IMG/VR virus record: IMGVR_UViG_2778261630_000007
Strand: one strand, 5' to 3'
Origin: a virus
Taxonomy: Duplodnaviria; Heunggongvirae; Uroviricota; Caudoviricetes
DNA: 38,730 bases
Part shown: positions 20,543 through 38,730 of the stretch, piece after piece
How the letters are laid out: each line of letters opens with the position of its first letter
How positions within the stretch are numbered: the first letter of the stretch is position 1
The notes under the pieces: model-generated
Seen by the model: the letters and a program-made list of their open reading frames with translations, nothing else
The model's database searches: none
Told to the model about the DNA's origin: nothing
Translations under genes and position numbers: made by a program

Positions 20543-20617
<75 letters not shown>

Positions 20618-20620
20618 ATA

Positions 20621-20696
<76 letters not shown>

Positions 20697-22946: not shown

Positions 22947-23102
22947 TTACTCTCTAGATTCGTAGTCTACGAAGACAGCGACCTCCGTCTGGCCGGTTCG
23001 GATTCGTACCTCGCAGAGGTCTTTCCTCGTTACCAGTGCCGTCACTATGACGGTTAAACAGATGACGATCAGGGCGATTAGCATCGCTTTTTGCTGCTTC
23101 AT
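22947..23102 (-). CDS. hok: Hok/Gef family type I toxin (HokD/RelF-like)
   Basis: MKQQKAMLIALIVICLTVIVTALVTRKDLCEVRIRTGQTEVAVFVDYESRE from ATG at 23102; Hok signature with a single TM segment and CE(V/I)R motif. The ORF-track in-frame upstream extension is mok-like leader or spurious. Confidence 0.85.
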   Translation of the reverse strand: MKQQKAMLIALIVICLTVIVTALVTRKDLCEVRIRTGQTEVAVFVDYESRE

Positions 23103-23313
23103 AGCCTGCTTCTCCTTGCCTTTCGGCACGTAAGAGGCTAACCTACATGTGTTCAGCATGGATTGAGCCTCAGATTAATGTTAAGCGTCTTGCAGGACGC
23201 GTAATGTTAACTGGGGCTTTTCTCTATCTGCCTTTTGGTGTTCATGCCTGAGGCAGATAGCCTCAAGCACCCGCAGCAATTCTACTTAACTCTCCTTTTC
23301 CCGCAAACCGTTT

Positions 23314-28838: not shown

Positions 28839-29261
28839 TTAATGAACAATGACAGAATCGTCGGAAGACCCGCCGCCGCTGAAATGCGCTTTCCGGTAAA
28901 CGGCTTGGACTGCATCATCATGCGCATCAATTGCCGTACTTAACGCTTCCTGCGCCGCCAGTAATGCACGGCGTTCCAGGGTATCGAAGATGCAGAGTCG
29001 GTGACGCAGCTCGCGCGGAAGGATTGCCAGAATTGCTGGGATCAGCTTCTGAATTTTTTCTCTTTGCGTTTTCGTTTCACCTTTCAACCAACGGTGATAG
29101 ATATTCTGCTGATTGTTCCAGTCCTTGCCTGGAACCAGGGGCAATTCGCCGCCCCCCTGGCGCAGATATTCTTCAGTAATTGCATTGGCTACCCATGCCT
29201 GCCCTTTTTCGGCTGCCAGGGCAAACAACACTGATTCGATGTGCTCATGCTTGATTTTCAT
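28839..29261 (-). CDS. ydaT: YdaT-like protein (toxic second gene of the ydaS-ydaT pair)
   Basis: 140-aa ORF directly after the Cro-like gene; size and position match Rac YdaT. Confidence 0.7.
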   Translation of the reverse strand: MKIKHEHIESVLFALAAEKGQAWVANAITEEYLRQGGGELPLVPGKDWNNQQNIYHRWLKGETKTQREKIQKLIPAILAILPRELRHRLCIFDTLERRALLAAQEALSTAIDAHDDAVQAVYRKAHFSGGGSSDDSVIVH

Positions 29262-29283
29262 GAATCATTTGCCTCTTGATGTT

Positions 29284-29580
29284 TCAGGTATGATCAAATG
29301 AGGATTTGTTACTGTCATTTAGTTGCTTCACTGACATATTCTGCGAACAACATGCCGAACGTCGTAAATATGACCAGTCAATATCAGGACGAAGCTCTTC
29401 GCACAGAATCTCACCTCTTGTTGCACGTTCAATTGCTGGACATCTCTCGGCAGGCAATTGACGTACCCCTTTGATCCATTGATTTACGCTTGGAGGTGAT
29501 ACACCTAAAAGCCTAGCCATTGCTGATTGCCCACCGACAACAGCACAAGCTTGCTTGAATGAATAGTTCTCTTTTTTCAT
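29284..29580 (-). CDS. ydaS: Cro/CII-like HTH regulator YdaS
   Basis: 98 aa; HTH core QSAMARLLGVSPPSVNQWIKGVRQLP; divergent from racR; GGAG upstream of ATG at 29580. Confidence 0.85.
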   Translation of the reverse strand: MKKENYSFKQACAVVGGQSAMARLLGVSPPSVNQWIKGVRQLPAERCPAIERATRGEILCEELRPDIDWSYLRRSACCSQNMSVKQLNDSNKSSFDHT

Positions 29581-29609
29581 CGAATGAACTCCAAAAACAC
29601 ACAGAAATA

Positions 29610-29649
29610 TTAGGCGACGCCTAACATAAATGTCAATAGGCTATGCCTA
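29610..29649. promoter_or_regulatory. OR-like operator region between ydaS and racR: two TAGGC-N3-GCCTA palindromes
   Basis: TAGGCgacGCCTA at 29612..29624 and TAGGCtatGCCTA at 29637..29649 in the 123-bp divergent intergenic region; a minus-strand TTGACA -35 lies at 29631..29636. Confidence 0.6.
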
Positions 29650-29703
29650 ATGCGATAAGGGTAGGGATTGCCTAATGCAATGAGCATAGGAGAATATTAA
29701 GCA

Positions 29704-30180
29704 ATGCTTAGTGGTAAAGACTTAGGCCGAGCGATAGAGCAGGCCATTAACAAAAAAATCGCATCGGGATCCGTCAAATCAAAGGCGGAGGTCGCACGCC
29801 ACTTCAAAGTCCAACCACCATCAATTTATGACTGGATTAAGAAAGGCTCCATAAGTAAAGATAAACTTCCAGAATTATGGCGTTTCTTTTCTGATGTTGT
29901 TGGTCCAGAGCATTGGGGGCTTAACGAATACCCCATACCAACCCCCACCAATTCAGATACAAAAAGTGAACTTTTAGATATAAACAACCTTTATCAAGCA
30001 GCCTCTGATGAAATAAGAGCGATTGTAGCTTTCCTGTTATCTGGAAATACTACAGAACCAGATTGGGTTGACCACGATGTTCGCGCCTACATAGCAGCGA
30101 TGGAAATGAAAGTGGGTAAGTATCTGAAAGCTCTAGAATCTGAACGGAAAAGCCAGAACATCACAAAAACTGGAACTTAA
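29704..30180 (+). CDS. racR: prophage repressor RacR
   Basis: 158 aa; N-terminal HTH (KSKAEVARHFKVQPPSIYDWIKKG); divergent from ydaS; AGGAG upstream of the start. Confidence 0.85.
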   Translation: MLSGKDLGRAIEQAINKKIASGSVKSKAEVARHFKVQPPSIYDWIKKGSISKDKLPELWRFFSDVVGPEHWGLNEYPIPTPTNSDTKSELLDINNLYQAASDEIRAIVAFLLSGNTTEPDWVDHDVRAYIAAMEMKVGKYLKALESERKSQNITKTGT

Positions 30181-30276
30181 ACTTATATGGTCTGACGGAA
30201 AACTCTTGGATTCCGTTATTTAACCCCCCATCACTTTCTCCTGTCGCCATCACCTATTAGGTTACGCCCAAAACAT

Positions 30277-30318
30277 TAGGCATAGCCTATTGACAATCAA
30301 TTAGGCATTACCTATAGT
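30277..30318 (+). promoter_or_regulatory. OL-like operator pair overlapping a sigma70-like promoter for the early-left operon
   Basis: TAGGCataGCCTA at 30277..30289, TTGACA at 30291..30296, TAGGCattaCCTA at 30302..30314, TATAGT at 30313..30318 with a 16-nt spacer. Confidence 0.55.
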
Positions 30319-30487
30319 TCCAGCATACCACCCACCCCGCCCCACAGAACGCAGGGCAATACTTCGAGTTACCAGGCAGTGGTAAGGGGTTAAGTAGCCA
30401 GCCCGAGGCGTATGAACATGACGGCGGGATTCAAATTTTGCAGTGCAGCAGTTAGTTCCGCCACCCGGCGTTAAGGGGAGAGATAAG

Positions 30488-30622
30488 ATGGTGCATTACG
30501 AAGTAGTTCAGTATTTGATGGATTGTTGCGATATCACTTACAGCCAGGCTGTACAGGCTCTACGCAGCAACGACTGGGATCTCTGGCAGGCAGAAGCCTC
30601 TATCCGCAACAACAAAATGTGA
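30488..30622 (+). CDS. ydaG: YdaG-like small protein (44 aa), below the ORF-track threshold
   Basis: ATG at 30488 preceded by GGGGAGAG; MVHYEVVQYLMDCCDITYSQAVQALRSNDWDLWQAEASIRNNKM; size and position match Rac ydaG. Confidence 0.55.
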   Translation: MVHYEVVQYLMDCCDITYSQAVQALRSNDWDLWQAEASIRNNKM

Positions 30623-30632
30623 GGTGCGAAAA

Positions 30633-30788
30633 ATGCAAAAAATCGACCTCGGCAATAACGAATCCCTAGTGTGCGGCGTGTTCCCCAACCAAGATGGAAC
30701 GTTCACTGCTATGACGTATACCAAAAGCAAAACATTTAAAACCGAAACTGGTGCGCGCCGATGGTTGGAGAAGCACACAGTAAGCTAA
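30633..30788 (+). CDS. ydaF: YdaF-like small protein (51 aa), below the ORF-track threshold
   Basis: ATG at 30633 preceded by GAGGTG; MQKIDLGNNESLVCGVFPNQDGTFTAMTYTKSKTFKTETGARRWLEKHTVS. Confidence 0.55.
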   Translation: MQKIDLGNNESLVCGVFPNQDGTFTAMTYTKSKTFKTETGARRWLEKHTVS

Positions 30789-31273
30789 CGATTAAAACGT
30801 CTACTCCTGCTGTTCCAGAATAACTTCATAAAATGGGAGTATTTTTCGGTGACGAGATAATAAGAACAGTTTGCGCTATCACTCTGATGTTGAATGATGC
30901 CCTTCCGTTCTAATTTTTTCATAACCGGGTTACGGCAAGGAGAAGTGATAATAAGATTTCCTGTTTTAAGGAAATCTTTAAATACAGCGATTTCTTTCTC
31001 AGATAAACGAAGCAATACTCGTTGCTCTGGTAGTAATGAATAATGCTTTTGAATATGTGCTCGCAATCTTGAGAAGGAAATGGCGACCACGAAAGAAAAG
31101 GCAAAAACGATAATCTGAAAGAGCCAAGGTATTTCAGTATAAGCATTGAATTCGACAGTAAACTCTTTCGGTATCAGCCAGAGAGTGAGACCAAAAATGA
31201 TAATCGTATACATAAGTCTTTCGAGTAGCTCGTTAGCAAAAAGTTTCAACAATGGAGTAAATACATCCAACAT
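30785..31273 (-). CDS. sieB: superinfection exclusion protein B
   Basis: 162 aa from ATG at 31273 (MLDVFTPLLKLFANELLERLMYTIIIFGLTLWLIPKEF...); two TM segments; AT-rich; matches Rac SieB size and position. Confidence 0.8.
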   Translation of the reverse strand: MLDVFTPLLKLFANELLERLMYTIIIFGLTLWLIPKEFTVEFNAYTEIPWLFQIIVFAFSFVVAISFSRLRAHIQKHYSLLPEQRVLLRLSEKEIAVFKDFLKTGNLIITSPCRNPVMKKLERKGIIQHQSDSANCSYYLVTEKYSHFMKLFWNSRSRRFNR

Positions 31274-31491
31274 ATCAATAATTCTCAACTGTAAGGGTAT
31301 TGAAATGTTAACACAAGCTCTCGCTGTAGGGGTATAGCCGAGACCACCGAAGCCCGGAGGTGGTGAAATAAAACCGGGCACAACACGAAGGCGCACTTCC
31401 GGTATCCATAAAGAGTCGGTCTTGTCTGTTAAATTTAAATGGTGGGAGTGCGCCTCCGGTTGTAAATAACAACACTGCTGTGTGTAGTCTT

Positions 31492-31539
31492 GGCGGCATC
31501 AGTTTTTTCTTGAAGTTCGACTGATGTCCGCCCTTTTTA
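31492..31539 (+). terminator. putative + strand hairpin with U-run upstream of kilR (terminator or antitermination element)
   Basis: GGCGGCATCAG ... CTGATGTCCGCC (11 to 12 bp stem, 18-nt loop) followed by CTTTTTAAA. Confidence 0.35.
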
Positions 31540-31713
31540 AAGTGAATTTTGTGATGCGGTGAATGCGGCTAAGCGCACGCGGCACAGTTAAAAGTCATGT
31601 TAGTCCTTATTGGTTTGGGTGGGAAAGCCGACTGTAATTGTTAACTGGTTGCAGTCACCTGGAGGCACCAGGCACCGCATCAACAAAGTTCATTTGTAAA
31701 AATGGAGATAATT

Positions 31714-31935
31714 ATGATTGCACATCACTTCGGAACTGATGAAATACCACGTCAGTGTGTGACTCCTGGTGATTATGTTCTTCATGAAGGCCGGACATAT
31801 ATCGCCTCGGCAAACAATATTAAAAAGCGAAAACTTTATATTCGTAACCTGACTACAAAAACATGCATTTCTGACTGCATGATTAAAGTCTTCCTCGGTC
31901 GTGATGGTTTACCAGTAAAGGCGGAGTCATGGTGA
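31714..31935 (+). CDS. kilR: KilR, FtsZ-targeting cell division inhibitor
   Basis: 73 aa from ATG at 31714 preceded by GGAGA; [49 protein letters not shown]... matches Rac KilR as recalled. Confidence 0.85.
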
Positions 31936-32105
31936 TGACTAAGAAAATAAAATGTGCTTACCACCTTTGCAATAAAGGAATTGAAGAAAGCAAAAGCATT
32001 AAAAGACCACTTCATTTCATGCGTGGAGTTATCCCAACGACGGAAATGAAAAAATATTGTAGTGAAAATTGTGCCGAAAAAGACCAGATGGCACACGAAC
32101 TTTAA
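31935..32105 (+). CDS. ydaE: YdaE-like small Cys-rich protein (56 aa)
   Basis: ATG at 31935 overlaps the kilR stop (TGATG); [56 protein letters not shown]. Confidence 0.7.
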   Translation: MTKKIKCAYHLCNKGIEESKSIKRPLHFMRGVIPTTEMKKYCSENCAEKDQMAHEL

Positions 32106-32178
32106 TTAACTGACTATGCGAAACTGAATTTATGCCAGCAATGGCAGGGATTCGCTCAACCTTAATTAAGGAGAAAAA

Positions 32179-32454
32179 ATGATTACCAATTATGAAGTCA
32201 CTGTTGTAACTACCGATGACATTGTTCACGAGGTTAATCTGGAAGGAAAGCGTATTGGCTACGTGATTAAAACAGAAAATAAAGAAACCCCATTCACTGT
32301 GGTTGATATTGACGGCCCATCAGGCAACGTAAAAACACTTGATGAAGGTGTCACAAAAATGAGTCTGGTTCACATCGGAAAGAATCTGCCCGTAGAAAAA
32401 AAAGCCGGATTTCTGGCAACTCTGATTGCAATGAAATTAAAAGGTGAAATCTGA
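32179..32454 (+). CDS. racC: RacC protein
   Basis: 91 aa; AAGGAGA upstream; MITNYEVTVVTTDDIVHEVNLEGKRIGYVIKTENKETPF... matches Rac RacC as recalled. Confidence 0.8.
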   Translation: MITNYEVTVVTTDDIVHEVNLEGKRIGYVIKTENKETPFTVVDIDGPSGNVKTLDEGVTKMSLVHIGKNLPVEKKAGFLATLIAMKLKGEI

Positions 32455-32552
32455 AAAAAGAAAGCCTGCACAACGTGCAGGCCTGAGTGAAGAACCTGGG
32501 ACATTTATTCATCACTCGCAGTAATTTTAATCTGAGTTGAGGTTAAAAAACA

Positions 32553-33284
32553 ATGAGCACAAAACCACTCTTCCTGTTACGGAAAGCGAAAAAATCATCC
32601 GGTGAACCTGACGTCGTCCTGTGGGCAAGCGACGATTTTGAATCGACCTGTGCCACTCTGGACTACCTGATCGTTAAGTCAGGTAAAAAACTGAGCAGCT
32701 ATTTTAAAGCTGTTGCCACGAATTTTCCTGTCGTTAATGACCTGCCCCCTGAAGGTGAGATCGATTTTACCTGGAGTGAACGCTATCAACTCAGCAAAGA
32801 CTCCATGACCTGGGAACTAAAATCGGGAGCAGCGCCAGACGACGTTCACCATCAGGAGAATGCTCAGGAAACCGAAGAACTGACGGGAGGGCAGGAAGAA
32901 AACACACTGGCAGACGCTCACGGGGATTGCCAGGATTGCGAAGTTTCTGTATCTACTTTGCGGTTCACACAGCGTCTTCTGCACATTTTTACGTATGCGG
33001 CCGGGAATCGGAAATACCTGCATCATGCCACCCGTGAACAACGCGAACACATTACTGCTCTTGAGATGGATCAGGAAAACAGCTATGTCCAGAATCTGCT
33101 GTTGGCCATACGCGGTATGGCAGAACCGACAACTCTGGATAATGCCGCCCTGCTCCGCCTGACTGATGCAATTAAGGCAGTTTTCTCTATCACGAAAAAA
33201 CATCAGCCCTATGAATTTAAGAATTTCATTTCAGCCTGGCTGGATACCGAACACATTGATCGTGGTCTTCTGACAAAAGAATGA
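32553..33284 (+). CDS. recE: RecE (exonuclease VIII) N-terminal segment, ending at an in-frame TGA
   Basis: MSTKPLFLLRKAKKSSGEPDVVLWASDDFESTCATLDYLIVKSGKKLSSYFKAVATNFPVVNDLP... matches the RecE N-terminus as recalled; TGA at 33282..33284; the downstream ORF is in the same frame with no intervening stop. Confidence 0.7.
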   Translation: MSTKPLFLLRKAKKSSGEPDVVLWASDDFESTCATLDYLIVKSGKKLSSYFKAVATNFPVVNDLPPEGEIDFTWSERYQLSKDSMTWELKSGAAPDDVHHQENAQETEELTGGQEENTLADAHGDCQDCEVSVSTLRFTQRLLHIFTYAAGNRKYLHHATREQREHITALEMDQENSYVQNLLLAIRGMAEPTTLDNAALLRLTDAIKAVFSITKKHQPYEFKNFISAWLDTEHIDRGLLTKE

Positions 33285-33431
33285 AGGAAAGGGAATCGTG
33301 TTTCACGCATCACTCGCACGGCTTCCGGTGCTAATGCTGGCGGCGGGAACCTCACCGATCGCGGCGAAGGTTTCGTCCACGATCTGACGTCACTGGCACG
33401 CGATGTAGCCACTGGCGTACTGGCCCGTTCA

Positions 33432-35675
33432 ATGGACGTGGACATCTATAACCTTCATCCGGCACACGCTAAACGCATTGAGGAAATTATCGCTGAAAAT
33501 AAACCGCCCTTTTCTGTTTTCCGCGACAAATTCATCACCATGCCTGGCGGGCTGGATTATTCACGCGCCATCGTGGTTGCGTCCGTGAAAGAAGCACCAA
33601 TTGGGATCGAGGTCATCCCCGCGCACGTCACTGAATATCTGAACAAAGTACTGACTGAAACCGATCATGCCAACCCTGATCCGGAAATCGTGGATATTGC
33701 CTGCGGTCGCTCCTCTGCCCCGATGCCGCAGCGTGTAACAGAAGAAGGAAAACAGGATGATGAAGAAAAACCGCAACCATCTGAAACAACGGCAGATGAA
33801 CAGGGAGAGGCTGAAACAATGGAACCGGACGCAACTGAACATCATCAGGACACGCAGCCGCTGGATGCTCAGTCACAGGTAAATTCTGTTGATGCGAAAT
33901 ATCAGGAACTGCGGGCAGAACTCCATGAAGCCCGGAAAAACATTCCATCAAAAAATCCTGTCGATGCCGATAAATTGCTTGCTGCATCACGTGGTGAATT
34001 TGTTGACGGAATTAGCGACCCGAACGATCCGAAATGGGTTAAGGGGATCCAGACTCGCGATTCTGTGTACCAGAACCAGCCAGAAACGGAAAAAACCAGC
34101 CCGGATGTGAAACAACCTGAGGCAGTAGTGCAACAGGAACCGGAAATAGTCTGCAATGCCTGCGGTCAGACTGGCGGAGATAACTGCCCTGACTGTGGGG
34201 CGGTGACGGGCGACGCAACATACCAGGAAACATTCGATGAAGAGAATCAGGTTGAAGCTAAGGAAAAAGATCCGGTGGAAATGGAAGGCGCTGAACATCC
34301 GCACAATGAGAATGCTGGCAGCGATCCGCATCGTGATTGCAGTGATGAAACTGGTGAAGCGTCAGCTCCTGTAGCAACTGAAATCATGTGGCCGTCATAT
34401 TTCGAGCCTGGCCGCTATGAAAACCTCCCGAACGAGGTTTATCACTCCGCCAACGGAATAAGCAGCACGATGCTGAAGGATGCCCGTATCAGCCTGATGT
34501 ATTACCACGGACGGCACATTGCCGGAACTATTCCGAACGAGGAAAGTGATGCACTGCTGCGTGGGCGGATCATTCACAGCTATGTTCTGGAAACGGATAA
34601 ATTCGCTGATGAATATGCCATTCCGGTACCGGTTCCTGAATATGTGGTTACTACTTCTAGCGAACTGATCGCCATCATTAAAAAACACAATGCCAGTCTG
34701 CCAGCACTGATGACACCAGAGCAGATGAAAGAGTGGATCGAAAGCTACAACAGCACTCTTATACAGCCACTGTCTGTAAGTGCCGGGGCCGAAGAAACAG
34801 GCATCCTTTACGGTTCGCTTCCGGTGGAATTTCGGCGTATTCCTGAGGGGGAAAAACACACAGCATCAGCAATGAAAGCCTGTATTAAAGAATACAACGC
34901 AAGCCTCCCTCCTCTGTTGAAAACCAGTGGAGCACGGGAGCAGCTTCTGGATCAAATTGAAACTGTAGACCCAGAACTGGCAAAAAAAGAACGTGCTAAA
35001 TCTTTGCCTTACAACATCAGTGGCACAAAAGAGCAATTAACCGAAATCGCACGGAAAATTCGCCCGGAACTGGTGACACTGGAGGACTGGCAAAAACGCC
35101 AGCAAGAAGAAAATGCCGGGAAAACGTTTATCAGTCCGGAGATGTATGAACAGGCAAAAAATATTCACGCGGCACTGCAAAACAATACCGATGCAGCAAG
35201 GCTACTCAACCACCCGGATCGCAAATCTGAAATCAGCTATTTCGGGTTTGATGAAGAAACCGGGCTGGAAATCAGGGTCCGTCCTGATATCGAAATCCGG
35301 CTGCCATACGAAAGCATTTGCGCTGACGTGAAGTCAGTCAGCCTCGGTTATGTGCGACAGGAACGACTTAAAGATCGCCTGCACCGTGAAATTATTGAGC
35401 GTGATTATCACCTCAGCGCCGCAATGTATTGCGATGTGGCAAACCTGGACAAATTTTTCTGGATCTTCGTCAACAAAGATGCTGGCTATCACTGGGTGGC
35501 AGTCGTGGAAGCCTCGCAGGAACTCCTGGAACTTGGTCGACAGGAATATCGCCGGACGCTACGCCAGATAAACGAAGCCCTGGAGACAAACAACTGGCCA
35601 GCACCGATTACCGAAAGTTATACCGACGAATTAAACGACTTTGATCTTCGTCGTCTTGAAGCACTGAGCATCTGA
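33432..35675 (+). CDS. recE: RecE (exonuclease VIII) central region and C-terminal nuclease domain
   Basis: 747-aa ORF in the same frame as 32553..33284; the 49 codons between them also read as RecE-like ([33 protein letters not shown]...); acidic central linker; C-terminal domain is divergent from K-12 RecE as recalled. Confidence 0.75.
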
Positions 35676-35686
35676 GGAAGGACACA

Positions 35687-36739
35687 ATGAACGAATTAAC
35701 TCAACAAGAAAATATTAACTCTAATGTTGCGGTTTTCAGCCCTCAGTCCCTGGCTGCAATTCAGACATTTTCCCAGGTAATGGCTTCCGGCATGGCTACT
35801 GTACCGGAACACCTCCGGGGAAATCCATCAGACTGCATGGCCATCACCATGCAGGCGATGCAGTGGCAAATGAACCCTTACGCAGTAGCTCAGAAAACTT
35901 TCGTTGTGAATGGTGTGCTCGGATATGAAGCGCAACTGGTTAATGCCGTAATCAGTACTCGTGGGCCGCTAACCGGGCGTATTGAATATGACTGGTTCGG
36001 GCCGTGGGAAAAAATTATCGGGAAATTTGAAATCAGGAAGAGCGACAAAGGGAAAGAATATCGTGTACCTGGCTGGAAGCTGGCCGATGAAAACGGGATC
36101 GGTGTTCGTGTCCAGGCAACACTACGCGGCGAAAGTAAACCACGCGTACTGGAATTACTTCTGGCGCAGGCCAGAACACGTAACTCAACGCTATGGGCCG
36201 ACGATCCTCGCCAGCAGCTTGCCTATCTAGCGCTGAAACGCTGGGCGCGCCTTTATTGCCCCGAAGTGATTCTTGGAGTGTACACCAGGGACGAACTGGA
36301 CGAGCCACAGGAAAAAATCATTAATCCGGTTCAGGAACATAAAAACACTTCCGCTTGCCGCGCGGAACGTGAAACAACAATTATTGAGCAGGATGCCGGG
36401 GAAAACTGGATCGATGCTTTCCGTGAACGTATTGAGCAGGCACAAAGCACCGGGGAAACAACAGCACTTCGCCAGGAAGTGGAAGATCATAAAAATACAC
36501 TTGGCGCTCTCTATACGGAACTTAAAGGAAAAGTGGTTCAGCGTCATCACCGTCTCAATGCTATTGCCCGTATCGAGAAGATGATAAATGACCTACCTTC
36601 TTCAGGTGATCCAGAAGCAGAACAAAAATTTACTGCTCTGGAAAATACGCTGAATGCTGCCCGGCCACATCTGGGTGAATTATATGAGGCGTATAAAACG
36701 ACACTGACAGATATGAAACCAGAATATATCGGCTCCTGA
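35687..36739 (+). CDS. single-strand annealing protein (RecT/Redbeta superfamily, Bet-like)
   Basis: 350 aa directly after recE with GAGGAAGGA upstream; ...QWQMNPYAVAQKTFVVNGVLGYEA... and ...STLWADDPRQQLAYLALKRWARLY... resemble lambda Bet more than K-12 RecT. Confidence 0.65.
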   Translation: MNELTQQENINSNVAVFSPQSLAAIQTFSQVMASGMATVPEHLRGNPSDCMAITMQAMQWQMNPYAVAQKTFVVNGVLGYEAQLVNAVISTRGPLTGRIEYDWFGPWEKIIGKFEIRKSDKGKEYRVPGWKLADENGIGVRVQATLRGESKPRVLELLLAQARTRNSTLWADDPRQQLAYLALKRWARLYCPEVILGVYTRDELDEPQEKIINPVQEHKNTSACRAERETTIIEQDAGENWIDAFRERIEQAQSTGETTALRQEVEDHKNTLGALYTELKGKVVQRHHRLNAIARIEKMINDLPSSGDPEAEQKFTALENTLNAARPHLGELYEAYKTTLTDMKPEYIGS

Positions 36740-36802
36740 TATTGACTTTGGCGGTGTAGCCTCACCGCCATCACAAAATTTTATTTTATGAGAGAAAAGA
36801 CA

Positions 36803-36997
36803 ATGCGGTATGAAAAAGTCAAACCATGCCCTTTTTGTGGTTGTCCATCAGTAACGGTGAAAGCCATTTCCGGATATTACCGCGCGAAGTGTAACGGATG
36901 CGAATCCCGAACCGGCTATGGTGGAAGTGAAAAAGAAGCACTCGAACGATGGAATAAACGAACCACTGGAAATAATAATGGAGGTGTTCATGTATAA
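36803..36997 (+). CDS. ralR: restriction alleviation protein Lar/RalR
   Basis: 64 aa from ATG at 36803; MRYEKVKPCPFCGCPSVTVKAISGYYRAKCNGCESRTGYGGSEKEALERWNKR...; Cys4 zinc-ribbon; position between the annealing protein gene and ydaC as in Rac. Confidence 0.65.
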   Translation: MRYEKVKPCPFCGCPSVTVKAISGYYRAKCNGCESRTGYGGSEKEALERWNKRTTGNNNGGVHV

Positions 36998-37178
36998 AAT
37001 TACCGCCACTATTGAAAAGGAAGGTGGCACTCCTACTAACTGGACAAGGTACTCAAAAACAAAATTAACCAAATCAGAATGCGAAAAAATGCTCTCAGGT
37101 AAAAAAGAAGCAGGCGTTTCCAGAGAGCAGAAAGTAAAACTGATAAATTTTAATTGCGAGCAACTTCAGTCCTCGTGA
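36990..37178 (+). CDS. ydaC: YdaC-like small protein
   Basis: ATG at 36990 preceded by GGAGGTG; MYKITATIEKEGGTPTNWTRYSKTKLTKSECEKMLSGKK...; 8-bp overlap with lar. Confidence 0.6.
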   Translation: MYKITATIEKEGGTPTNWTRYSKTKLTKSECEKMLSGKKEAGVSREQKVKLINFNCEQLQSS

Positions 37179-37277
37179 ATTGCATTGTATTCAAATTAAA
37201 ACTTCATAGCTGATTATTAATAATCAACATCGGGCGTCAATTTCAGTCTAACATTGGCGCCTGCCAGAGGTGATGCG

Positions 37278-37493
37278 ATGGCACAAGTAATCTTTAATGA
37301 AGAGTGGATGGTTGAATACGGCCTGATGCTTCGCACTGGTCTGGGGGCCAGACAAATTGAAGCATACCGCCAGAACTGTTGGGTGGAAGGCTTCCACTTC
37401 AAACGAGTATCTCCTTTAGGGAAGCCAGACAGTAAGCGAGGGATTATCTGGTACAACTATCCAAAGATAAATCAGTTTATCAAAGACTCATGA
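37278..37493 (+). CDS. xis: excisionase (Xis-like)
   Basis: 71 aa from ATG at 37278 preceded by GAGGTG; immediately upstream of int with a 1-bp gap; small basic protein. Confidence 0.7.
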
Positions 37494-37494
37494 T

Positions 37495-38730
37495 ATGTCT
37501 AAATTACCAACAGGTGTCGAGATTCGAGGTAAATACATTCGCATCTGGTTCATGTTTCGAGGAAAACGATGTCGGGAAACATTGAAAGGCTGGGAGGTTA
37601 CTAACAGTAACATTAAAAAAGCCGGGAATTTAAGAGCGTTGATAGTTCATGAAATCAATTCCGGTGAATTTGAGTATTTAAGACGTTTCCCCCAGTCCAG
37701 CACTGGGGCAAAAATGGTGACAACGAGGGTCATAAAAACGTTCGGGGAGCTTTGTGATATCTGGACAAAAATTAAAGAGACAGAGTTAACAACAAACACA
37801 ATGAAGAAAACGAAATCACAATTAAAAACACTCAGGATAATAATTTGTGAGAGTACCCCAATATCACATATTCGTTATAGCGATATCTTAAACTACCGGA
37901 ATGAACTGCTGCATGGAGAAACGCTTTACCTGGATAATCCAAGATCCAACAAAAAAGGAAGAACCGTGCGCACAGTTGATAACTATATCGCCCTGCTCTG
38001 TTCGTTGTTACGTTTTGCGTATCAGTCGGGATTTATATCAACCAAACCATTTGAAGGAGTAAAAAAATTACAGCGAAACAGAATAAAGCCTGATCCGTTA
38101 TCTAAAACAGAATTCAATGCATTAATGGAAAGTGAAAAAGGACAGAGCCAGAACTTGTGGAAATTTGCCGTTTACTCCGGGCTTCGTCACGGGGAACTGG
38201 CTGCTCTGGCGTGGGAGGATGTGGATTTCGAGAAGGGAATTGTGAATGTCAGAAGAAACCTGACGATACTTGATATGTTCGGTCCCCCAAAAACAAATGC
38301 GGGGATTCGGACGGTAACACTACTGCGGCCTGCTATTGAAGCACTGAAGGAGCAATACAAACTAACCGGGCATCATCGCAAAAGCGAAATCACTTTTTAT
38401 CATCGGGAGTACGGCAGAACCGAAAAGCAAAAACTGCATTTTGTTTTCATGCCCAGGGTGTGTAACGGAAAACAGAAACCTTATTACTCGGTAAGCAGTC
38501 TGGGGGCGAGATGGAATGCAGCAGTAAAACGTGCTGGTATTCGCCGCCGTAATCCGTACCATACGCGGCATACTTTTGCCTGCTGGTTGTTGACGGCAGG
38601 AGCGAACCCGGCATTTATAGCCAGCCAGATGGGGCATGAAACTGCGCAGATGGTGTATGAAATTTACGGTATGTGGATTGATGACATGAACGACGAACAG
38701 GTAGCTATGTTGAATGCGCGGTTATCGTAG
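37495..38730 (+). CDS. int: tyrosine site-specific integrase (Rac IntR-like)
   Basis: 411 aa; C-terminal catalytic region ...HTRHTFACWLLTAGANPAFIASQMGHETAQMVYEIYGMW... with the R/H-x-x-R/Y signature; stop TAG at 38728..38730, so the att site lies just past the window. Confidence 0.9.
   Translation: MSKLPTGVEIRGKYIRIWFMFRGKRCRETLKGWEVTNSNIKKAGNLRALIVHEINSGEFEYLRRFPQSSTGAKMVTTRVIKTFGELCDIWTKIKETELTTNTMKKTKSQLKTLRIIICESTPISHIRYSDILNYRNELLHGETLYLDNPRSNKKGRTVRTVDNYIALLCSLLRFAYQSGFISTKPFEGVKKLQRNRIKPDPLSKTEFNALMESEKGQSQNLWKFAVYSGLRHGELAALAWEDVDFEKGIVNVRRNLTILDMFGPPKTNAGIRTVTLLRPAIEALKEQYKLTGHHRKSEITFYHREYGRTEKQKLHFVFMPRVCNGKQKPYYSVSSLGARWNAAVKRAGIRRRNPYHTRHTFACWLLTAGANPAFIASQMGHETAQMVYEIYGMWIDDMNDEQVAMLNARLS

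Follow-up and report, generated by a model that had tools for sequence, protein, structure and literature searches.

The 38,730-nucleotide stretch of viral DNA analysed here, referred to as the window, very probably includes a Rac-type lambdoid immunity module with operators for the repressor RacR on both sides of racR. The locus is 97.7% identical to Rac of E. coli K-12. The initial annotation compared two groups of palindromes flanking racR with lambda OR and OL, and predicted that one repressor controls both the ydaS-ydaT operon and the kilR/recET operon. This interpretation, which corresponds to a textbook lambdoid design, is supported: palindrome geometry, purifying selection, retention across lineages and joint replacement with the repressor all agree with the lambda parallel, and the prediction of a common repressor is consistent with the published RacR footprint and with the derepression of both arms upon RacR depletion. 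The identities assigned to ydaS, racR and the early-left operon were also correct. The cluster between ydaS and racR is an already published system, and the one downstream of racR seems to be undescribed so far.

Palindromes and promoters flanking racR

A pattern search confirmed the presence of TAGGC-N3-GCCTA palindromes on both sides of racR. The exact form (TAGGCNNNGCCTA) was found three times in the 38.7-kb window, at 29611-29623, 29637-29649 and 30277-30289, while 100 dinucleotide shuffles gave 0.02 on average and never reached three. Allowing up to one mismatch added 29662-29674 (TAGGGATTGCCTA) and 30302-30314 (TAGGCATTACCTA), for a total of five versus 0.56 expected. All five fall into two clusters that flank racR, and a search of the whole window for further copies, which had been proposed with the initial annotation, found none with up to one mismatch elsewhere. 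The positions originally given for 29637-29649, the perfect 30277-30289 and the singly mismatched 30302-30314 hold, but the first site occupies 29611-29623 and not 29612-29624. Furthermore, the ydaS/racR divergent region includes four sites rather than two, those at 29662-29674 and 29698-29710 having been overlooked (Table 1).

Table 1. Features of the racR region, in coordinates of the window
Feature	Position	Strand	Sequence	Characteristics
ydaS	29284-29580	−		ORF; Cro-like; heads the early-right operon ydaS-ydaT-ydaU-ydaV
PydaS (PR analogue)	29607-29636	−		TTGACA 29636-29631, 18 nt, TAATAT 29612-29607; 10/12 in promoter scan
Right operator O1	29611-29623		TAGGCGACGCCTA	perfect; between PydaS -35 and -10, overlaps -10 by 2 nt
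Right operator O2	29637-29649		TAGGCTATGCCTA	perfect; abuts PydaS -35; within 22-nt inverted repeat shared with left cassette
Right operator O3	29662-29674		TAGGGATTGCCTA	one mismatch
Right operator O4	29698-29710		TAAGCAATGCTTA	variant palindrome over racR ATG and leaderless racR promoter start
racR	29704-30180	+		CI-analogue repressor, 158 aa
Hairpin	30193-30218	+		13 nt past racR stop; folds at -9 to -11 kcal/mol (RNAfold) in every variant
Possible weak third left site	30255-30270 (palindrome 30258-30270)		TAGGTTACGCCCA	two mismatches; low confidence
Left operator, distal	30277-30289		TAGGCATAGCCTA	perfect; abuts left promoter -35; centred near -42
Left promoter (PL analogue)	30290-30318	+		TTGACA 30290-30295, 17 nt, TATAGT 30313-30318; 11/12
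Left operator, proximal	30302-30314		TAGGCATTACCTA	one mismatch; between -35 and -10, overlaps -10 by 2 nt; centred near -17
Early-left transcript leader	30325-30487	+		conserved

The genes ydaS and racR are divergent, with 123 bp between them. The product of the former matches the Pfam families YdaS_toxin (4.6e-31) and P22_Cro (1.8e-9), and identical E. coli records annotate the 29284-29580 gene as ydaS. The four right sites start at positions 29611, 29637, 29662 and 29698, a spacing of 25-36 bp, with O1 and O2 bracketing the PydaS -35 hexamer. This number matches the "four operators" of the literature. The PydaS hexamers have been validated in K-12 by primer extension and mutagenesis of -10 and -35 (PMC9638921, PMC11879457). 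RacR was footprinted on this cluster in K-12, where the same motif was defined, and the O1 region was protected already at the lowest concentration (PMC9638921). The half-sites of O1 are unchanged across 38 variants while its N3 spacer varies, and O3 is perfect (TAGGCATTGCCTA) in an O157:H7-class relative. O4 corresponds to the published operator with the racR ATG inside its spacer (PMC9638921) and has the counterpart TAGGC(A/T/G)ATGCTTA in other genera; it is likely an autorepression site.

The TTGACA/TATAGT promoter originally placed downstream of racR is present, with a spacer of 17 rather than 16 nucleotides. It is a near-consensus sigma-70 promoter that begins 110 bp past the racR stop codon and faces the + strand genes ydaG, ydaF, kilR, ydaE, racC, recE, recT, ralR (lar) and xis-int. 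The start of transcription is predicted near 30325. Between 30300 and 38730 the other + strand promoter matches are at 37196 and 37815, both 9/12 with none higher, and a scan of the same interval found no + strand intrinsic terminator. The two left operators start 25 bp apart, a distance that is the same in all other lineages with the pair. When their A/T flanks are included (ATTAGGCATAGCCTAT and ATTAGGCATTACCTAT) they match the published (T/A)TAGGC-n3-GCCTA(T/A), and they are as near to this consensus as the footprinted O1-O4. The left cassette and the validated PydaS -35/O2 are linked through a perfect inverted repeat of 22 nt (30274-30295 and 29631-29652), and a common design can be written for both promoters as palindrome-TTGACA-N6/7-palindrome-(TA)TAGT/ATAT.

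Three other elements are found in the vicinity. A third left operator at 30258-30270 was considered and rejected: only its left half, ATTAGGT, is kept in E. coli variants and there is no counterpart in other genera, so that it is at best a weak half-site. The hairpin at 30193-30218 shows one compensatory change in the O157 class (ACGGAA/TTCCGT to ACGGGAA/TTCCCGT) and is possibly a weak terminator, or an mRNA 3' end element, separating racR from the left promoter. The leader at 30325-30487 lies outside the immunity module because homology with prophages of other immunity types begins there; Qin-type phages have the same conserved leader behind their left promoter. Its identification as a known RNA was discarded after Rfam gave no match by gathering score or with E up to 10 and the folding z-score was -0.44. 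The RNAalifold covariation term over six sequences was unfavourable (+1.56), giving no covariation support, and phage pPE4 does not conserve the short ORF (MTAGF...) of the leader.

Conservation and replacement of the module

In a phylogenetic footprint consisting of 38 and 33 unique variants, variation was seen in 2 of 60 half-site columns versus 65 of 197 other non-coding columns (Fisher p = 5e-7); by this footprint, the half-sites are under purifying selection. The hexamers of the left promoter are nearly invariant in the 33 variants. Substitutions in the O157 class, which has 87% identity, are located in the N3 spacers and linkers.

In Mixta, Morganella, Proteus, Yersinia and Pectobacterium, the downstream pair on a TTGAC(A/T) promoter likewise follows racR homologues that are 57-64% identical; in an Achromobacter MAG and Pectobacterium aroidearum, the homologues that it follows are fused to S24. 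Seven other lineages keep the downstream cassette behind a racR homologue, with unrelated flanks and with differing spacer and linker sequences. The pair was not seen within the 1.5-2.5 kb examined at three racR homologue loci, those of Klebsiella (L011), Pigmentiphaga (L013) and Salmonella (L101); cargo genes may be inserted there, as in the L104 locus, where two ORFs separate the repressor gene from the left promoter. Of the 96 IMG/VR stretches that encode a RacR-type N-terminal domain, 90 carry both clusters; this survey was seeded with the cassette pattern and is therefore not an unbiased sample. The distance between clusters is about 0.65 kb here, 616-691 bp in the short-repressor lineages and 0.5 to 3.9 kb overall. 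Helical phasing between clusters was also considered and dismissed, as there is no common phase over the lineages.

Strain 0H25, a relative of different immunity type, carries another repressor/cro pair in place of about 29268-30329. This swap takes out ydaS, racR and both operator clusters together, and its boundaries are the YdaT box and a few nucleotides past the left promoter. The 0H25 module has its own motif, (T)GAAC-N5-GTAC(A), on both sides of its repressor. A defined left promoter and operator would also fix the true extent of the Rac immunity module, about 1.06 kb.

A proposed two-armed RacR switch and its alternatives

RacR belongs to the small set of transcription factors that are essential in E. 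coli K-12. Its N-terminal domain has the five-helix HTH fold of the CI/Cro/XRE type, as in lambda CI, P22 C2 and 434. The RacR of the window has no Pfam match to Peptidase_S24; lacking this autocleavage domain, it would not be induced through RecA-stimulated cleavage, and it can be grouped with the non-cleavable repressors DicA, PaaR2 and those of Gifsy. Homologues with the same N-terminal domain and operators do carry S24 (1.2e-13 in L012, 3.7e-15 in L013, and P0103).

The proposed module of about 1.06 kb (roughly 29268-30329) consists of ydaS, the intergenic operators, racR, and the left promoter with its operators. In this model RacR binds the 13-15-bp palindromes, (A/T)TAGGC-N3-GCCTA(A/T), as a dimer. 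The four right sites, already published and footprinted, lie over the strong promoter of ydaS and over those of racR. In the left pair, with starts 25 bp apart, one site abuts the -35 and the other fills the spacer and overlaps the -10. Cooperative filling of the pair would occlude RNA polymerase and silence the early-left operon ydaG-ydaF, kilR-ydaE-racC, recE-recT, ralR and xis-int. We infer that RacR binds the left pair and represses transcription there, as well as cooperativity between its two sites and any OL-OR looping. With one repressor on both clusters, loss of RacR would open both arms together. RacR depletion is reported to derepress ydaS/ydaT, to raise kilR, ydaF, ydaG, ydaE and racC 40- to 70-fold, and to increase recET, xis and int as well (PMC6765115; bioRxiv 10.64898/2026.09.06.749655). 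Part of this left-arm derepression in RNA-seq may follow an indirect route through YdaS, YdaT, excision or racR read-through. A left promoter and operator, once defined, would directly explain the rise of kilR, recET, ralR and xis-int upon RacR depletion, as well as the zygotic induction shown by Rac, and may also be relevant to the activation of recET by sbcA-type mutations. Since the silencing of kilR in K-12 is also Rho-dependent (PMC4150792), the repressor is not the sole barrier.

A broader reading, which we offer tentatively and consider possible rather than probable, combines a six-site RacR device with a cross-genus immunity group. If the former were true, RacR octamers would loop the 0.65 kb between clusters and the left pair, beyond its role at the left promoter, would be needed for full ydaS/ydaT silencing and racR autoregulation. 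If the latter were true, TAGGC-N3-GCCTA would be read in Enterobacterales and Burkholderiales by RacR-type N-terminal domains whose partner is either the RacR oligomerisation domain or an SOS-cleavable S24 domain, with the induction pathway swapped and the specificity kept.

It is somewhat unlikely that the left palindromes are mainly YdaS targets, or that they are used by both YdaS and RacR; under shared use YdaS would, like Cro at lambda OL, lower transcription of the early-left arm once induction has occurred. RacR and YdaS are 41% identical over a 29-residue helix-turn-helix segment, YdaS represses PydaST about 16-fold in Rac (PMC11879457), and in CP-933P PaaR2 and YdaS each repress PL933P about 100-fold (PMC8630535). 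However, the motif was derived from RacR footprints (PMC9638921), Rac has no defined YdaS binding site, and the palindromes accompany RacR-type N-terminal domains even beside a divergent gene that is only distantly YdaS-like. Shared use of the left sites would be compatible with the main explanation. The left cluster could instead act mainly at long range, with RacR octamers bridging the two clusters as in the lambda OL-OR loop, so that ydaS would be repressed more tightly and racR autoregulation adjusted, local repression being secondary. The octameric state of RacR by size exclusion (PMC11014345), the two multi-site clusters flanking racR, and looping, which is established in the case of lambda CI and has been proposed for that of PaaR2 (PMC8630535), are in agreement with this possibility, which we nevertheless regard as unlikely given that the clusters are 0.5 to 3.9 kb apart with no conserved helical phasing; the sites always lie exactly on the -35/-10 of a strong promoter, which argues that local occlusion is primary.

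A role of the palindromes in stopping racR transcription, either as RNA hairpin terminators or through a RacR roadblock against read-through into kilR, rather than as promoter operators, appears very unlikely. It is true that racR and the early-left genes are co-directional, that Rho-dependent termination of racR transcripts is needed for kil silence (PMC4150792), and that a scan flags 29607-29627 and 30277-30289 as a hairpin followed by a T-run. These matches are found on the − strand only, with stems of 5-9 bp, and intrinsic termination was rejected as the primary role; on the + strand the 5-bp stems have no T-run after them, the conserved hairpin at 30193-30218 is a better 3' end candidate, and the sites are always phased with TTGACA and TA-rich hexamers. 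A roadblock effect could exist additionally. Finally, the left cassette might be a non-functional relic, left in a decaying prophage after the right promoter/operator was copied through duplication or gene conversion; Rac is cryptic in K-12 and the 22-nt perfect identity of the cassettes could stem from a recent conversion. This would be hard to reconcile with half-sites and hexamers that are kept while adjacent bases drift, with a cassette found in seven other lineages with differing spacers and linkers and also in inducible full-size prophages, and with the matching pair that the relative of different immunity has of its own, and we consider it extremely improbable.

Relation to known systems

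Descriptions of the left cluster, and binding, footprint, reporter or start-site results on the left region, were not found in the searchable literature, and an earlier report may exist; PPTP-seq and sigma-S run-off profiling contributed nothing useful. Conter et al. 1996, reportedly the first to describe kil, might discuss the left promoter. The racR-ydaS system of K-12 Rac has the same motif, ydaS promoter hexamers and four inverted repeats as the right cluster of the window, with DNase I footprints and EMSA for its RacR operators (Krishnamurthi 2017, PMC5700373; Wisniewska 2022, PMC9638921; Gucwa 2023, PMC11014345; Wons 2025, PMC11879457). These four papers cover the intergenic region only, with no mention found of sites or a promoter downstream of racR, and the RacR regulon is called not characterised in detail.

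The concept of the switch is unchanged, since this layout is also that of lambda, P22, 434, Qin and CP-933P. Lambda and Rac share divergent repressor/cro genes, a leaderless repressor mRNA, a CI-type HTH, and operators 24-26 bp apart over two outward early promoters flanking the repressor gene. Cargo may separate the left promoter from the repressor gene in both types, rexAB in lambda and two ORFs in L104. The Rac palindrome core has 13 bp versus 17 bp in lambda and the sites are distributed 4 + 2 versus 3 + 3; unlike lambda CI, RacR lacks S24 autocleavage, and unlike in lambda, neither an N gene nor a nut site follows the Rac left promoter.

Qin DicA/DicC, with dicCp and dicBp, resembles Rac in its short non-cleavable repressor and in a left operon that includes a cell-division inhibitor (PMC10448788). 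The dicA-dicC and dicA-dicBp intervals hold three operators each; the repressor and operator sequences differ from those of Rac, and an antirepressor induction route has been demonstrated for DicA (PMC10448788). The PaaR2/YdaS/YdaT switch of CP-933P from E. coli O157:H7 comprises PR933P, PRM933P and PL933P/OL1-3 (Jurenas 2021, PMC8630535). Its left promoter is repressed by PaaR2 and YdaS in reporter assays, whereas that of Rac is predicted from sequence. CP-933P differs from Rac in its repressor family, in its 18-bp operator repeats (consensus half GTTTAGTAA) and in a toxin-antitoxin pair between the repressor gene and PL. Its immunity region is Rac-like, with a non-cleavable, octamer-forming repressor, homologues of YdaS and YdaT, and a second promoter past the repressor operon that carries matching operators and has -35 and -10 hexamers identical to those of PR.

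Known and predicted operators and promoters on both sides of racR

The window region is a lambdoid prophage of the Rac type from E. coli, and nucleotides 29200-30800 showed 100% identity to strain 190 and 97.7% identity to Rac of K-12 MG1655 in a sequence comparison. The initial annotation had described TAGGC-N3-GCCTA palindromes on both sides of racR, two in the racR/ydaS gap and two 3' of racR, and this observation stands with small corrections. Exact copies of TAGGCNNNGCCTA are found three times, where dinucleotide shuffles give a mean of 0.02, and allowing one mismatch adds two more (five against 0.56 expected). A pattern search of the 38.7 kb found no further copy with up to one mismatch outside the two clusters, and both downstream palindromes were recovered as described. 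In the gap the second palindrome was correctly placed, while the first begins one base earlier than annotated and the total is four sites rather than two. With up to two mismatches the total of nine is at chance level; two of the extra matches fall inside the clusters, one of them being itself a palindrome over the racR ATG.

A promoter scan identified TTGACA-17-TATAGT downstream of racR (11/12 match), confirming the hexamers proposed for the left promoter with a spacer of 17 rather than 16 nucleotides, and TTGACA-18-TAATAT upstream of ydaS. The two promoters have a common structure: one palindrome abuts the -35 hexamer and a second follows 6 or 7 nucleotides after it, its final two bases (TA) being the first two of the -10 hexamer. 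Thus the ydaS promoter reads TAGGCATAGCCTA-TTGACA-TTTATGT-TAGGCGTCGCCTA-ATAT and the left promoter TAGGCATAGCCTA-TTGACA-ATCAAT-TAGGCATTACCTA-TAGT, and a perfect 22-nt inverted repeat surrounds racR. If the predicted start near 30325 holds, the centres of the left sites fall near -42 and -17, and two dimers bound there would cover both hexamers. On the + strand of 30300-38730 the scans found no other promoter match above 9/12 (two reach 9/12, at 37196 and 37815) and no intrinsic terminator, which fits a single long early-left operon.

An 8-bp stem hairpin begins 13 nt past the racR stop codon and is retained in all variants, with one compensatory change in the O157 class; as its T-run is weak, it may serve either to terminate weakly or to stabilise the 3' end. 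The exonuclease VIII gene of the window consists of two ORFs: the first encodes 243 aa, including the Exonuc_VIII N-terminal domain, and the second 747 aa with the PDDEXK domain. RecT is 350 aa long. Strain 190, by comparison, has one undivided recE gene of 883 aa and a RecT of 269 aa. Either a variant recET module or a frameshift could account for this. Rfam searches also located the RalA sRNA, which is the antitoxin to ralR, a sok antitoxin RNA adjoining a hok-type gene and, in the late region, two tRNA genes.

Features of the racR region, the wider prophage and related loci (window coordinates unless a locus is named)
Feature	Position	Strand	Remark
ydaV, ydaU		-	precede ydaT and ydaS in the - strand order
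ydaT	28839-29261	-
YdaT box	29251-29268	-	ATGATT-CATGAA-AATCAA
ydaS	29284-29580	-	aligned 29284-29577
ydaS promoter	29636-29607	-
Gap palindromes	29611-29623, 29637-29649		exact
Gap palindrome	29662-29674		one mismatch
Gap palindrome	29698-29710		TAAGCAATGCTTA, two mismatches
racR	29704-30180	+	aligned 29704-30177
Hairpin	30193-30218
Left-cluster match	30258-30270		TAGGTTACGCCCA, two mismatches
Left palindrome	30277-30289		exact
Left palindrome	30302-30314		one mismatch
Left promoter	30290-30318	+
22-nt inverted repeat	29631-29652 / 30274-30295
Leader	30325-30487
ydaG	30488-30622	+
ydaF	30633-30788	+
sieB		-	between ydaF and kilR
kilR, ydaE, racC, recE, recT, ralR, xis, int		+	in this order after sieB
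recE ORFs	32553-33284, 33432-35675
recT	35687-36739
RalA sRNA	36996-37174
sok RNA	23097-23272
tRNA genes	20546-20696
Swap boundaries (0H25)	~29268 and ~30329
0H25 operator motif	L002 1829-1902, 2388-2430
S24-fused repressor, Achromobacter MAG	L012 1501-2598
S24-fused repressor, Pigmentiphaga	L013 1501-2406
S24-fused repressor, P. aroidearum	L104 2501-3208

Conservation and exchange of the two clusters

In the O157:H7-class region, which is 87% identical, every site is retained and the third right site is perfect, the substitutions lying within the N3 spacers and between sites. For the intergenic region 38 unique variants were compared and for the left region 33, all taken from E. coli and IMG/VR loci; a minor allele present in at least three variants was found in 2 of 60 half-site columns and in 65 of 197 spacer or other non-coding columns (Fisher p = 5e-7, indicative only as the variants are phylogenetically related). 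Homologues of racR with 57-64% protein identity from Mixta, Morganella, Proteus, Yersinia and Pectobacterium all have the downstream pair, with starts 25 bp apart on TTGAC(A/T)-N6-...-(TA)ATAT, in otherwise unrelated DNA. An Achromobacter MAG and Pectobacterium aroidearum encode a longer protein, a RacR-type N-terminal domain fused to Peptidase_S24, and have the pair 3' of its gene. No downstream pair was found within 1.5-2.5 kb in the Klebsiella, Pigmentiphaga and Salmonella loci, two of which have further genes after the repressor.

An IMG/VR pattern scan for the palindrome plus TTGAC returned at least 120 stretches, and a RacR-type N-terminal domain was present in 96 of the 120 listed. Among these matches, a sample seeded with the cassette pattern itself, 90 of the 96 carry two or more sites in the gap upstream and two or more on the downstream side; the pair downstream is spaced 24-25 bp, at a distance of 0.5-3.9 kb from the start of the repressor, and the exceptions listed are mostly incomplete contigs or stretches. 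In most of the listed stretches that are not of the E. coli Rac type the seed matched only one cassette, and the other cluster was found independently.

The E. coli 0H25 prophage shares with the window ydaT and everything from a few nucleotides past the left -10 hexamer onward, and differs in its cro-like gene and its repressor. Homology ends right after the YdaT box and the ydaT start and restarts at about 30327-30330. Its own motif, (T)GAAC-N5-GTAC(A), is found with 24-bp spacing both in the intergenic region and on the left promoter, and therefore the two clusters are part of an exchangeable immunity module of about 1.06 kb. The YdaT box, a previously published element that spans the start codon of ydaT, falls at the right-hand limit of this module.

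The S24 (LexA/CI-type) fusion genes of the Achromobacter MAG, Pigmentiphaga and P. aroidearum, whose N-terminal domain (residues 1-77) is about 70-75% identical, have the same TAGGC-N3-GCCTA operators, so that this operator code is common to SOS-cleavable and non-cleavable repressors. The racR region of a 5.2-kb contig assigned to a Candidatus Nanosynbacter MAG (JARKOR010000130.1) shows 99% identity to E. coli Rac, and the bin is almost certainly contaminated with E. coli DNA.

The leader of about 165 nt starts a few nucleotides past the predicted left-promoter start. It is found, with 77-98% identity, 3' of unrelated DicA-like and CI-like repressors in temperate phages of the Qin/DicA and other types (Evi, Tritos, vB_EcoS-640R1, pPE4) and in the 0H25 prophage. 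Of the 5,426 complete genomes of E. coli, 3,554 matched part of the 29200-30800 query, and for about 2,000 of these the listed matches cover the leader alone; the RacR-type region is present in only 554 of the 5,426. The C-rich, G-poor 5' end of the leader resembles a rut site, and searches of 30325-30487 found no Rfam match, no covariation (six sequences) and no conserved small ORF.

Known and probable control by RacR, and relation to known systems

The right cluster is already published. Three RacR-DNA complexes were formed on the 123-bp intergenic region, in which three repeats were noted (Krishnamurthi et al., PMC5700373); the ydaS promoter (TTGACA/TAATAT) and three racR promoters were mapped, RacR was footprinted, and a half-site ATTAGGC and inverted repeats (T/A)TAGGC-n3-GCCTA(T/A) were defined, one with the racR ATG within its spacer (Wisniewska et al., PMC9638921). 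Later work speaks of four operators and reports RacR as an octamer (PMC11014345, PMC11879457). No mention of sites or a promoter 3' of racR was found in these four papers, and one states that the RacR regulon has not been characterised in detail. Searches of the searchable literature with the operator sequences, or with racR and OL or PL, gave no match; a 1996 description of kil may show the left promoter.

We consider it highly likely that RacR dimers bind the left palindromes cooperatively and keep RNA polymerase off the strong early-left promoter, with a mechanism and a DNA code shared with the ydaS promoter, so that loss of RacR would open both arms. Published expression data fit the prediction of one repressor for both operons: when RacR was lowered by the C.Csp231I protein or CRISPRi, ydaS and ydaT increased, kilR, ydaC and ralA rose more than 70-fold and ydaF, ydaG, ydaE and racC about 40-fold, and recE, recT, xisR and intR also increased (PMC6765115; bioRxiv 10.64898/2026.09.06.749655).

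That the left sites are a relic of a duplication, or act in RNA as a terminator, is unlikely given their conservation and their fixed register with the promoter hexamers. Roles in addition to repression are possible: RacR octamers may loop the clusters together, bound RacR may be a roadblock against read-through from racR, or the left sites may also be used by YdaS. RacR and YdaS share 41% identity over a 29-residue helix-turn-helix (AEVARHFKVQPPSIYDWIK / SAMARLLGVSPPSVNQWIK), which suggests related DNA recognition, and as a consequence YdaS might plausibly read the same or overlapping sites, as Cro does.

A domain search of RacR gave only a sub-threshold HTH_17 match and no S24 domain, and its sequence matched no solved structure. 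An AlphaFold2 model (22 homologues, mean pLDDT 82) shows an N-terminal domain of five helices joined by a disordered linker to a helical C-terminal domain. The parallel with lambda OR and OL drawn in the initial annotation held in the computational tests; both the sequence-level and the fold-level features of a lambdoid immunity switch are found, and the system would work alike. The S24 autocleavage of such switches is absent from RacR, which is therefore grouped with non-cleavable repressors such as DicA, PaaR2 and those of Gifsy. In P. aroidearum two extra co-directional ORFs lie between the repressor gene and the pair, much like rexAB between cI and PL of lambda. Among experimentally tested analogues of the left cassette the closest is PL933P with OL1-3 of CP-933P (PMC8630535). 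The left cluster is an apparently new, expected instance of a familiar design.
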